A stretch of DNA of 64,000 bases, from assembly GCF_947568905.1 (NCBI RefSeq), contig NC_079164.1, positions 24,738,001 through 24,802,000 on the forward strand, written 5' to 3'. Positions 33,101 to 36,294 of the stretch are shown here, one piece after another (the stretch's first letter is position 1; each line of letters begins with the position of its first letter). The position numbers and the translations under genes are program-made. This stretch comes from Ostrea edulis (taxonomy: Eukaryota). The notes below the pieces were generated by a model. That model ran no database searches and had not been told where the DNA came from. It saw only the letters and a program-made list of their open reading frames with translations.

Positions 33101-33491
33101 GAGAAATAAATTTTTAAAGAGGCGGTGAAGAAACATTGAACCTCGACTCGACCTCTTTGACCTCTGTTTCTTTGAAAACTATGCGACGTAGCAAAATAAA
33201 AGTAAGTTTAACGAATTCCGCGCCCTAGAATCTATCAGATTAAATCTACCATGCACAGATATCGAATGTCTAGAAAAAGAAAATGAGAAAAAACTCTCTC
33301 CTCGAAAGCACAAATCCGCCATTTTGACGGCCGCCATCTTGGCTTCGTCTCCGAAGTGAGGGATGTTTTCGAGGAGGTCCGCGCTTTCCTGATATATACC
33401 GGCGCGCTCGCCAGTTCGCTTCACTGGTGATCCAGCAAAGGTTTGATTATTTTAAAGAAGTTATAGAAGAAAGAAGATAGAAGAAAGAAGA
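33101..33491 (+). promoter_or_regulatory. Duplicated promoter and 5'UTR, copy 1
   Basis: ~90% similar by eye to 35095-35485. Contains CCGCCATTTT/CCGCCATCTT (YY1-like), GGTCCGC at 33376-33382 and TATATA at 33393-33398. Confidence 0.8.
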
Positions 33492-34286
33492 ATGGCTGAA
33501 GGAAGAAGAGAGCCGATCTACAATTTCCAGACCCTGCCTGGCTTTCGGTACCGGCTGGTAGTGGTGGCTGAGGAGCGGGTAGGGGAGAATTGGGTCGTCC
33601 GTTCTCAGAACGACCTGAGTACCTTCTCCCCTTTCGACCGGAGTGGGGCCCGTGAGATCATCGACCGGGTGCGGCAAGAGTATGAAGGGAGGGGACGCCG
33701 CCGCACCGCTCGGATGTCCACGGCTACAAGACCACGCCGACGGGCCCCACAGCCACCCTCACCACCACCACCTTACTCCCCGGCGACGCCTACAGCAGCA
33801 CCACCAGCGATACCATCGGCACCGGAGGAATACAGCCCGGTGCCGATGAGCGAGTCGCCAGCGTCACCGGTGGAGTACTCACCGAGGTCACCGTCCCCCG
33901 CGCCACCTCCAAGCCCAGCCCAGAGTCCGTCGCTGTTGGTCGCAGACACGCCGCCACCATCACCACCGAGACCAGCAGCCCCTGCAAGACCCCCACCACC
34001 TACCATCCGGTCTGCAGGGAGGACTCCGCCACCGAGACCAACCCACGCACCTGTGGCAACTCATCCCCCGAGGAACCACCCTATGACTGTCCCTGGCTGG
34101 GCAGATAGGGCGGTTCCTATCTGGTTTAAGTGCCCTGTCTGCTGGCAAGACAGGGTACACTCCGGTATTACGTGCAGGGGATGTAGGCAGCGCCCAGCTT
34201 GCTGCCTGTGCGTGGAGCGGATAGAGGAGCGGCGACACACCCGGGGACGGTGCCCGTTATGCCGCTTTACCGGAGCCAGGCATTGA
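33492..34286 (+). CDS. Pro/Ser-rich protein with C-terminal C4C4 RING-like finger (264 aa), putative E3 ligase
   Basis: CPVC-x10-CRGC-x5-CCLC-x13-CPLC; PPPY motif and three YSP motifs including YSPRSPS. Confidence 0.75.
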   Translation: MAEGRREPIYNFQTLPGFRYRLVVVAEERVGENWVVRSQNDLSTFSPFDRSGAREIIDRVRQEYEGRGRRRTARMSTATRPRRRAPQPPSPPPPYSPATPTAAPPAIPSAPEEYSPVPMSESPASPVEYSPRSPSPAPPPSPAQSPSLLVADTPPPSPPRPAAPARPPPPTIRSAGRTPPPRPTHAPVATHPPRNHPMTVPGWADRAVPIWFKCPVCWQDRVHSGITCRGCRQRPACCLCVERIEERRHTRGRCPLCRFTGARH

Positions 34287-34308
34287 AAGTCGGTCCTTAG
34301 GACCAAAC

Positions 34309-34345
34309 GGCCCTTTTTAGGGCCACCCACATGTTACGAAAAGAT
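34309..34345 (+). terminator. Histone-type 3' stem-loop plus HDE, copy 1
   Basis: ACCAAAC-GGCCCT-TTTT-AGGGCC-ACCCA, then GAAAAGAT at 34338-34345. It lies 23 nt after the RING ORF stop, with no plus-strand AATAAA nearby. Confidence 0.88.
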
Positions 34346-34393
34346 GCTTTTATGACAATGATTGAGAAACAAATTAACACCAGTTGCACTTTA

Positions 34394-34897
34394 TTAACAA
34401 ATACATGATTTAATGACAATATACACTTGTTGATCACACCTATAAGCAAAATCATGAATACATTGTCTGTAATGAGTCCAATTTCCTCCCGCTAACCCAC
34501 ATCCAATCTTATAAGGGAAGGCTAAAGTCTTGTACGATAATGTGGCCAATTCACGTAAACATTGTTGAAACCATAGTTCTCGCTGTTCGGGTATATCTCG
34601 ATAGCGGGGAATACGCTGAGTTCCTTTTCCGTAATCCCACTGGGCTAAGAAACAAATCACATCAGGGTCTGTAGCATTTGATAAGATGCGTAACGTGCCG
34701 GGTATTCCTCGATCGGGTTCTATAGCTAGATTTCTACGGCCTAAGGGTCTCCGTGTAGCATACAAGTTGCCCCATGGATATTTGTCGGCAATACTTTGAC
34801 TTAATCCATGAGGTTTCACCGTTAAACAATTACATTGTTGTACAATACCATCGACTTTCATAGTGAGTAAATCTCCCTGCACATAAGTCACACTCAT
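34394..34897 (-). CDS. Macrodomain protein (TARG1/DarG/Poa1p-like ADP-ribose-processing module, 167 aa)
   Basis: V.GDLL, IVQQCNC, and LAFPYKIGCGLAGGNW. AATAAA overlaps the stop codon (34390-34395). Confidence 0.88.
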   Translation of the reverse strand: MSVTYVQGDLLTMKVDGIVQQCNCLTVKPHGLSQSIADKYPWGNLYATRRPLGRRNLAIEPDRGIPGTLRILSNATDPDVICFLAQWDYGKGTQRIPRYRDIPEQRELWFQQCLRELATLSYKTLAFPYKIGCGLAGGNWTHYRQCIHDFAYRCDQQVYIVIKSCIC

Positions 34898-35094
34898 GAT
34901 GTGAATGATGCGTGTCGAGGCTACAGCTTTCGTTTATATAAGTCACATTCACACGGTGTGTTTGTTGAGTGTCAATCATGGGGTTTCTTTGTCAAAGGTT
35001 CACTACCCCATTCAAAGTGGCATTAAAATAGGATGAAATAGGTTTTTCTCTATCGATCTAACTATCATTGAGGTTTCTACTACCTCACAGACGT

Positions 35095-35485
35095 GAGAAA
35101 TGAAGTTTTAAAGAGGCGGAGAAGAAACATCGAGCCTCGACTCGACCTCTTTGACCTTTGATTCTTTGAAAACTATGCGACGTAGCAAAATAAAAGTAAG
35201 TTTAACGAATTCCGCGCCCTAGAATCTATCAGATTAAATCTACCATGCACAGATATCGAATGTCTAGAAAAAGAAAATGAGAAAAAACACTCTGCTCGAA
35301 AGCACAAATCCGCCATTTTGACGACCACCATCTTGGCTTCGTCTCCGAAGCAAGGGATGTTTTCGAGGAGGTCCGCGCTTTCCTGATATATACCGGCGCG
35401 CTCGCCAGTTCGCTTCACTGGTGATCCAGCACTGATTTGAAGGATTTTTAAGATATAGAAGAAAGAAGATAGAAGAAAGAAGAAG
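35095..35485 (+). promoter_or_regulatory. Duplicated promoter and 5'UTR, copy 2
   Basis: GGTCCGC at 35370-35376, TATATA at 35387-35392, and the same purine-rich leader AGAAGAAAGAAGATAGAAGAAAGAAG as copy 1. Confidence 0.8.
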
Positions 35486-35713
35486 ATGAGCCGAGTACCG
35501 AGTCCTCCCATCAAGAACCACAACCTGGTCCCGGAGGATCAGCGTGAGGACTGGGATGCCGAGCTGGAACTGGTACAGCGGCCCCCGGGGCGCATTGTGT
35601 TCCAACCCGACGACTCATATGAGTGGCACTTCTTCTATGAAGGAGTGCCAGATGCCCCCAAGAAGCCGCTCAAGAGACGCCGCCGCCGAAACAAGAAGGC
35701 CGCCAGACAGTAA
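35486..35713 (+). CDS. Small acidic/basic protein with NLS (75 aa), function unknown
   Basis: ATG at the same position relative to the duplicated promoter as the RING gene; C-terminal PKKPLKRRRRRNKK; followed by a histone stem-loop. Confidence 0.65.
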   Translation: MSRVPSPPIKNHNLVPEDQREDWDAELELVQRPPGRIVFQPDDSYEWHFFYEGVPDAPKKPLKRRRRRNKKAARQ

Positions 35714-35761
35714 TGAGGTAATCAACCTCTAGACAGTGTGGGGGGCTTTCATAGTCCCCCC

Positions 35762-35798
35762 GGCCCTTTTCAGGGCCACCCACATCTTATGAAAAGAG
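35762..35798 (+). terminator. Histone-type 3' stem-loop plus HDE, copy 2
   Basis: GGCCCT-TTTC-AGGGCC-ACCCA (35762-35782) is the canonical consensus; GAAAAGAG follows at 35791-35798. Confidence 0.92.
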
Positions 35799-35875
35799 AC
35801 TGTATATGACAATGGTTGAGAGAAACAAAAACTAACACCAGTTGCACTTTTTTTTTATTAAGAAACTCGCTAAAG

Positions 35876-36208
35876 TTACACAGTGTTGATAGTTAATAAC
35901 TTGCCGTGTTCTTCATAGTCTCCCGTCATGTAACGTAGTCTTTCGGATGCGAGACTATTCTCATATGCTTTCCAACAACATAGAGGATGAACGAAATACC
36001 TCATGTTACGCTTCGTTCTCCAGTGTTTCATTTGAATCAATCCTCTTAACGTTTGTTGATCTCGGGTCATGATCAAATACTGGTATTCACTCTGAACGAT
36101 TTTAACGATATCCTCCGGTCCTGCATTGTCTAAGATAAAAGTCCATGCCATACTTTGAGGAGTTTCTCTCACGCCTTTGACTCTTCTATAAACTGGCACG
36201 TAATCCAT
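35876..36208 (-). CDS. Degenerate circovirus-type Rep N-terminal (HUH fold) protein 2 (110 aa)
   Basis: PQSMAWTFILDNAGPEDIVKI aligns with circovirus PQPHKRWVFTLNNPSEDERKKI. YLIM...TLRGLIQM corresponds to YFIV...HLQGFANF, and it ends GDYEEHG. Confidence 0.65.
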   Translation of the reverse strand: MDYVPVYRRVKGVRETPQSMAWTFILDNAGPEDIVKIVQSEYQYLIMTRDQQTLRGLIQMKHWRTKRNMRYFVHPLCCWKAYENSLASERLRYMTGDYEEHGKLLTINTV

Positions 36209-36294
36209 GTCTAAGTAGACTGATTTTTTAATTTGGGCAAACCTGTCTTATATAGGTACACACAACACAGATTTTTTTTTTTTTAATTTTTATT

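Follow-up and report, generated by a model that had tools for sequence, protein, structure and literature searches.

Two accessory genes of an oyster Polinton share a duplicated promoter and predicted histone-type 3' ends, and one encodes a candidate H3K9M-like motif

According to the available part of PMC4604434, no cellular mRNAs other than those of histones are known to lack a poly(A) tail, histone mRNAs are coupled to S phase and no convincing non-histone target of SLBP is recognized in HeLa cells; the storage of histone mRNAs in oocytes is reported in an abstract. The accessible text of a 2026 preprint (10.64898/2026.10.14.759114) states that the processing factors were not found in large DNA viruses and holds no mention of 'non-histone', 'transpos-' or 'Polinton'. 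Here we analyzed a stretch of 64,000 nucleotides (nt) from Ostrea edulis (NC_079164.1, positions 24,738,001 to 24,802,000 of the forward strand; hereafter the window, numbered from its first letter). It contains an intact 21-kb element at 29256..50362 (no strand assigned) that is a Polinton/Maverick by its polymerase, integrase, inverted repeats and target-site duplication. Two plus-strand genes of this element, encoding proteins of 264 and 75 amino acids (aa), carry copies of the same promoter and are followed by the sequence features of histone mRNA 3' ends. The reading that we favor, with modest confidence, is that these are two fixed accessory genes with one duplicated promoter and histone-type ends, and that the RING-like protein encoded by the larger one contains a predicted H3K9M-type decoy. 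No report of histone-type ends in Polintons or of a K9M mimic from a mobile element was found in the literature searched, and subscription papers, Repbase notes or supplements could hold one.

The original prediction was that a unit composed of a promoter, a plus-strand open reading frame (ORF), a histone-type stem-loop and a convergent minus-strand ORF with its own TATA box and AATAAA signal occurs twice, joined by a conserved junction of about 100 bp. Alignment of the window to itself with blastn recovered two repeated parts. The promoter block at 33101-33492 matches 35095-35484 over 393 nt with 94.1% identity (E 7e-175), and the junction at 34308-34395 matches 35761-35853 over 93 nt with 84.9% identity (E 2e-23), so that the junction is indeed conserved in both units. 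No third copy of either block was found by blastn within the 64-kb window. The promoter and 5' leader occupy 33101..33492 (+) in the first unit and 35095..35486 (+) in the second, with TATA boxes at 33393-33398 and 35387-35392, each 99 nt before the ATG. Identity between the two copies is 52% just upstream of the block, then 90%, 100% over 120 nt (33171-33290) and 95%; after a 21-nt dip to 48% it returns to 94% up to the ATG and drops to 39% within the ORFs. The minus-strand genes have a TATA box 43 or 46 nt ahead of the ATG as their sole common promoter feature, and their promoters show no significant similarity to each other by blastn. Because they share only the TATA box, the conserved frame consists of two parts, the promoter and the junction, and not three. 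The unit thus recurs for its plus-strand promoter and its junction but not for its minus-strand promoter.

Both junctions match the Histone3 family of Rfam (RF00032) on the plus strand, with 39.5 bits at 34304-34349 and 36.6 bits at 35757-35802 against a cut-off of 34, and these are the only Rfam matches within 28-52 kb of the window. Two occurrences of the hairpin pattern were found in the 64 kb, compared with 0.03 expected, and none of 100 shuffled sequences reached two. The first stem-loop with its ACCCA tail (34309..34329, +) begins 22 nt past the stop codon of the 264-aa ORF and folds as a predicted hairpin; the second (35762..35782, +), 48 nt past the stop codon of the 75-aa ORF, is identified by both the Rfam match and the fold. 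Each hairpin is followed after 13 nt by a purine-rich histone downstream element, at 34338..34344 (+) and 35791..35797 (+), in the same register as in the histone genes of three metagenome loci (L028, L042 and L048). At +13 to +20, seven of eight positions are purines in both window junctions; at least six of eight was found at 40/59 metagenome histone sites versus 1/59 at a control stretch. Behind the hairpin-bearing genes no plus-strand AATAAA or ATTAAA is present for 735 and 590 nt, respectively. Among the 19 ORFs checked, seven others that close gene blocks have such a signal within 58 nt of the stop codon. A Pfam search gave no match for either of the two ORFs, and neither encodes a histone.

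On the minus strand the junctions carry ordinary polyadenylation signals, at the positions originally proposed. The first region (34345..34395, -) has its AATAAA at 34390-34395, overlapping the stop codon of the convergent macrodomain gene, and the second (35798..35859, -) has its AATAAA at 35854-35859 and runs into an A tract. The GU/U-rich stretches that follow these signals form the second half of the conserved junction. The proposal of a two-way 3' end is therefore well supported at the sequence level by the Rfam hairpins, the purine elements and the minus-strand AATAAA. From these DNA features the plus-strand mRNAs would end at ACCCA, and they are likely cut by the host U7/SLBP route without receiving a poly(A) tail.

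Metagenome contigs were scanned for an exact 19-nt hairpin pattern, and at least 146 stretches contained it. In 135 loci 147 distinct sites were distinguished, 59 of them behind histone genes and 88 away from histone genes, a division in which the histone motif filter may miss some histones and in which 66 loci have flanks of only about 300 nt. Among the 88 non-histone sites, 53 have an ORF of at least 40 aa ending within 80 nt and eight have less than 150 nt of upstream sequence. The purine element is present at 56/86 non-histone sites versus 10/86 at the control position, and 9 out of 12 chosen non-histone metagenome loci passed the Rfam cut-off, as did 0 out of 5 viral-contig loci. Pfam names at the non-histone loci include the transposases DDE_3, DDE_Tnp_4 and ISXO2 as well as P2RX7_C and PC4. 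At L033, L036, L038, L064, L098, L135 and others, the stem-loop stands right behind ORFs of Tc1/mariner-, Harbinger- or ISXO2-type transposases, P2RX7_C or PC4. None of the metagenome stem-loop loci matched proteins of the O. edulis Polinton. Stem-loop scans of viral contigs (1, 8 and 41 stretches) were set aside as chance matches in phage or RNA-virus sequence on the basis of ORF context, with the exception of L142. This is a CRESS (circular Rep-encoding single-stranded) DNA virus genome from IMG/VR in which a histone-like hairpin (1235-1253, -) lies behind a putative capsid gene and faces Rep, with an AATAAA on the Rep strand.

We also looked for features of histone genes in the promoter block. 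Its comparison with 136 loci gave no blastn match among the matches listed. One 10-mer, about 45 nt before the TATA box (33347-33356), is common to the H2B promoter of L041; it was given no weight, as by a rough estimate about one such 10-mer is expected by chance among 28 promoters. AGGTCA-like hexamers occur as direct repeats in the terminal repeat (29302-29316) and in both copies of the duplicated promoter (33148-33163 in the first), and a CCGCCATTTT stretch is present at 33316-33325 within the first promoter copy. We take the hexamer repeats and the CCGCCATTTT stretch to resemble nuclear-receptor and YY1 sites.

The four genes served by these blocks had been described as RING plus macrodomain in the first unit and a 75-aa protein plus a Rep-like protein in the second. 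The 264-aa protein (33492..34286, +) is composed of an N-terminal domain, an H3K9M-like block, a Pro/Ser-rich linker and a C-terminal C4C4 RING-like zinc finger. Eight cysteines are invariant in an alignment of eight sequences and 6/6 matches to PDB sequences are RING domains or RING-type ligases, all weak (E 0.098-9.5), but no Pfam match was obtained at E<=0.05; a RING identity is likely, on faint similarity. In metagenome contigs, 94 pattern matches to this family were obtained and none was confirmed by alignment. The 167-aa protein (34394..34897, -; TATA box at about 34933-34940) is a macrodomain of the TARG1/DarG/Poa1p type, as proposed: its profile matches TARG1 (E 8e-6), and its structural model has a predicted local distance difference test score (pLDDT) of 94.5 and matches DarG (E 9e-8), Poa1p and TARG1 in Foldseek. 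The 75-aa protein (35486..35713, +) is an orphan that combines an acidic-Trp core with a basic tail. Its relatives of 97-99 aa stand behind the same promoter in other copies, and none of 1000 shuffles reached its score against each of three of them. The acidic-Trp motif is present once in the 75-aa protein and twice in the relatives P0003, P0022 and P0023, followed by VQRPPGR and the basic tail. The 110-aa ORF (35876..36208, -; TATA box at 36249-36254) is only faintly similar to the nuclease domain found in Rep proteins of CRESS viruses, and the Rep-like label did not hold beyond this. The Pfam match to Viral_Rep has an E value of 0.048 and the hhalign probability is 4%; with only 110 aa, the ORF has no His at the position of the HxQG motif II of seven aligned CRESS Reps. 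PDB sequence matches reached only E 0.33 and the single-sequence model (pLDDT 41.5) was unusable. Stand-alone homologues of the 75-aa or the 110-aa ORF were not found at near lengths or in the ESM Atlas, which is proof neither of absence nor of novelty.

The larger plus-strand protein carries the sequence TARMST at residues 72-77 (33705..33722, +), which matches T6-T11 of histone H3 with M replacing K9 (TARKST in the H3 of locus L013). We compared 32 family sequences and found [TS]AR[MI]ST in 29 of them, 15 with M and 14 with I. Among sequences matched by the pattern, position x of A-R-x-S-T was M or I in 29/30. The 12-mer that starts at residue 73 is the best-conserved stretch between the protein and five distant relatives (51-54% alignment identity), with a value of 0.93 versus a mean of 0.47 and 0.73 for the Cys blocks. 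Any of 14 tail-lysine contexts, taken from the canonical H3 and H4 of L013 and L028 and carrying M or I, arose in 14 of 50,000 shuffles, and the motif was found in none of 167 unrelated proteins. A degenerate pattern of the motif block was not found in viral contigs. In the available part of PMC6513997, M or I at H3K27 and at M406 of EZHIP inhibit PRC2, and H3K9M is described as sitting in the active site of G9a. The portion of PMC9768651 at hand reports that K-to-M mutants reduce methylation globally and that H3K9 methylation silences transposons. A virome-wide survey of mimics (PMC11738798) deals with exact five-residue matches only and, in the text available, makes no mention of methionine or Polintons. 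Taken together, the block is likely an H3K9-methyltransferase decoy, as predicted from its sequence; that it works as an inhibitor is a tentative proposal, to which we give a little less than an even chance.

Several observations weigh against parts of this reading. Beyond the TATA box, no histone-promoter signature was found in the promoter block, which has no CCAAT, and the idea of an H4-type promoter based on GTCCG, which we take to be a HINFP-like site, was dropped, as GTCCG occurs in 1/6 H4 promoters sampled. Several core genes inside gene blocks also have no near poly(A) signal. Regarding the motif, the match to H3 is limited to five flanking residues and ends after T11, and the block runs into an equally conserved RPRRR, so that a nuclear-localization signal is possible. 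The motif is absent in 3/32 family sequences (P0006 has ARNLT, P0012 has AQMST and P0197 is truncated). The change from M to I is a conservative one-base change that may have happened just once. The 32 sequences, which include 15 of the 54 members of the largest cluster, fall into two related groups and are not independent cases, and the motif was noticed post hoc, which makes the shuffle figure overstate the significance. The parts of the literature available contained no account of an inhibitory effect of I at K9 itself.

The repeated frame had been proposed to be a gene-capture slot, in which regulatory sequences are kept and coding sequences exchanged, and we give this model little probability. 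The cargo pairs are not diverged homologs of a single duplication: 98% of 300 shuffles score as well as the real comparison of the RING-like protein with the 75-aa protein, and 60% of 1000 shuffles as well as that of the macrodomain with the 110-aa protein. A common N-terminus of the two plus-strand proteins was considered and dropped, as 57-70% of shuffles score equally well. Because homologous regulatory sequence flanks unrelated cargo pairs, the ATG marking a drop in identity from 94% to 39%, at least one past replacement of coding sequence is implied, and this part of the proposal stands. An exchangeable slot, in contrast, is not supported by the copies seen. The RING-family protein is represented by 60 annotated O. 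edulis sequences in clusters of 5, 54 and 1 (21 of the 60 were listed), on several chromosome-sized records. In the three gene models that are informative (P0003, P0022 and P0023) the RING gene runs into a 97-99-aa relative of the 75-aa protein, with the same cargo and order in 3/3, and in two of them (P0022 and P0023) the model passes through this very promoter sequence between the two ORFs. In DNA contigs from four runs, representing up to four studies, 30/30 bins over all four genes were covered at a likeness of at least 85% in 4/4 runs. No recombinase site and no common boundary on the side of the minus-strand genes were found. On the other side, the 75-aa family varies strongly (75 versus 97-99 aa), and two contig hints may run counter to a fixed cargo in a survey that listed 15/36 joints, 24/485 loose ends and 32/8952 pieces. 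Among the joints listed, a 1192-nt contig connects promoter 1 with 3' end 1 across no more than 547 letters, compared with 881 here, a joint present in 3/4 runs; and among the matches listed, contigs depart from the reference right behind the second downstream element (35797), also in 3/4 runs. A RING-family gene lacking the Pro-rich linker could also account for the short insert, and host histone genes could account for the loose ends. Other joints listed connect junction 2 with the 3' end of the macrodomain gene (35854 to 34405, X1) or lead from within both plus-strand ORFs back to just ahead of the TATA box (33791 to 33377 or 35371; 35553 to 35370), and a step back across the macrodomain gene (34412-34883) is also present among the matches listed. 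The back-joints at 33377/35370 and 34412-34883 suggest local duplications in some copies. The promoter/junction region does rearrange and, judging by the contig hints, a minority of copies may hold other cargo. In all, the cargo is probably fixed in most copies, and a working exchangeable slot is not supported.

The hairpins could also be relics of a captured histone 3' end, or mere terminator or stabilizing structures within polyadenylated or read-through RNA. There is a precedent in H2AFX, whose stem-loop and downstream element lie inside a polyadenylated mRNA (available part of PMC4604434). We nevertheless regard this as improbable, since the perfect stem, the ACCCA tail and the distance of the purine element are kept in both copies while the 3' untranslated region ahead of the hairpin has diverged, and since the plus strand has no near poly(A) signal. 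The hairpins are probably functional. A viral source for the junction, with unit 2 as a captured ambisense CRESS-DNA virus segment that brought in the two-way terminator, has the layout of hairpin and AATAAA in L142 in its favor. It was dropped as a very remote prospect, since L142 is below the Rfam cut-off and none of its six relatives has the hairpin; furthermore, the 75-aa protein has no capsid likeness and the Rep resemblance of its partner is faint. A stronger competitor grants that the histone-type ends are real and takes TARMST as merely part of a basic nuclear-localization or phosphorylation motif in an ordinary viral RING regulator, presumably of the ICP0 or IE2 kind. The shortness of the match, the adjoining RPRRR and the frequency of M-to-I substitutions speak for it. 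However, a localization signal needs no invariant A-R-x-S-T, x is M or I in 29/30 pattern matches, and distant relatives retain the motif. We consider this alternative plausible, at a good deal less than an even chance, and continue with a pair of fixed genes, the larger of which encodes the predicted decoy.

Under this preferred reading, the module of promoter plus junction would have been copied once within the element and would have acquired a second gene pair, and its two copies may be held nearly identical by selection or gene conversion. At each junction a histone-type end on the plus strand would directly adjoin an ordinary poly(A) end on the minus strand, the mature mRNAs stopping about 40 nt apart. 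Through their histone-type ends the two plus-strand mRNAs would depend on SLBP, hence on S phase or on oocyte stores, and the RING-like protein would appear when new nucleosomes need H3K9 methylation. TARMST may then occupy the SET active site as K-to-M histones do and lower the silencing mark on new nucleosomes, and the RING finger may ubiquitinate a bound partner, perhaps the trapped methyltransferase. In its most extended form, which we put forward as speculative and rather unlikely as a whole, this amounts to a pseudo-histone programme. U7/SLBP-type mRNAs would be timed with those of host histones, and a fusion of a K9M/K9I mimic with an E3 ligase would trap and remove H3K9 methyltransferases, as a counterpart of EZHIP aimed at K9; histone 3' ends would then be used more widely by the mobile DNA of invertebrates, with this Polinton as one example.

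The element that carries these genes has terminal inverted repeats of about 360 nt, whose arms (29255-29616 and 50002-50363) are identical at 355/362 positions, and a 6-bp target-site duplication, an identical hexamer at 29250-29255 and 50363-50368. Pfam searches of its proteins identified DNA_pol_B_2 (protein-primed family B polymerase, E 1.5e-54), an integrase with rve (E 1.2e-9) and Chromo domains, a candidate packaging ATPase (Pox_A32, E 8.7e-7) and a candidate adenain-like protease (Peptidase_C5, E 0.0018). A 467-aa ORF has no Pfam match and is a candidate capsid gene by size and position alone; no relatives of it were found in viral contigs. The nearest named proteins to the Polinton proteins are from O. 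edulis, with 75-95% identity. Further accessory genes, at 45296-45823 (-) and 29689-30621 (-), encode an IAP (BIR + RING) and a two-knuckle CCHC protein. Between the left arm and the repeated modules, an ORF at 31059-31484 (-) resembles the nuclease domain of CRESS Reps (Pfam E 0.0087, hhalign probability 26%); it is without the motif II His and has no detectable likeness to the 110-aa ORF. A 70-nt repeat in three copies (91-93%), at 30755-30886 and 31549-31618, flanks a TG tract and this first Rep-like ORF. Three small tandem paralogous ORFs (blastp E 1e-7 to 5e-15) without a Pfam match follow at 31705-32742 (+), and a Bcl-2-like fold for them is our guess only. The ORF at 32577-32924 (+), which overlaps the preceding one in a different frame, matches PP1c_bdg of Pfam (E 2.4e-7) and is presumably akin to GADD34/ICP34.5. 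Outside the Polinton, an element at 22063-27144 is probably DIRS- or Crypton-like; its inverted arms measure 112 nt, and it has an ORF for a tyrosine recombinase (22886-23548, Pfam E 3e-8).

What stands from this analysis is a Polinton in which two non-histone genes have the style of histone genes and one of them bears a conserved H3K9M/I-like motif, and the repeat looks like joint regulation of two fixed genes rather than cassette exchange. Together with the metagenome transposase genes, this Polinton with two predicted ends of the histone type makes the exclusivity of the histone-mRNA route directly testable in invertebrates. If TARMST does inhibit H3K9 methyltransferases, it would be a natural K9M-type inhibitor from a mobile element and could provide a short peptide probe for G9a, SUV39H or SETDB1; the escape of a high-copy Polinton from oyster heterochromatin would also be accounted for.

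Among known systems, the metazoan replication-dependent histone genes are similar in their uninterrupted ORF, TATA box, 16-nt hairpin 22-48 nt past the stop codon, ACCCA, purine element 13 nt further on and lack of a near poly(A) signal. Unlike them, the Polinton ORFs do not encode histones and have no CCAAT box, and in each junction the downstream element and the 3' signals of the convergent, polyadenylated gene overlap. EZHIP/CXorf67 and the H3K9M and H3K27M oncohistones likewise carry M or I in place of the target lysine within a short peptide that resembles a histone, in the case of EZHIP inside a Pro/Ser-rich protein of largely low complexity. In the Polinton, by contrast, the context is that of H3K9 (TAR-ST) and not K27, the peptide is encoded by a mobile element and joined to a RING-like finger, and inhibition is a prediction. 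The 'Oncoid' accessory genes of Polintons and adintoviruses (PMC8502044) are comparable as host-interaction genes with short linear motifs and paired CXXC, next to the IAP of the present element; in the text available they differ in having Rb-binding motifs and a position upstream of PolB, with no RING, macrodomain, histone mimic or histone-type 3' end described. The macrodomain shares fold and sequence profile with TARG1/OARD1, DarG and Poa1p, while it is a stand-alone Polinton gene of putative activity. Integron-type gene cassettes, finally, share only the idea of constant flanks around unlike genes, whereas the Polinton modules have no recombination site and no array, carry an apparently fixed cargo and provide each gene with its own promoter.

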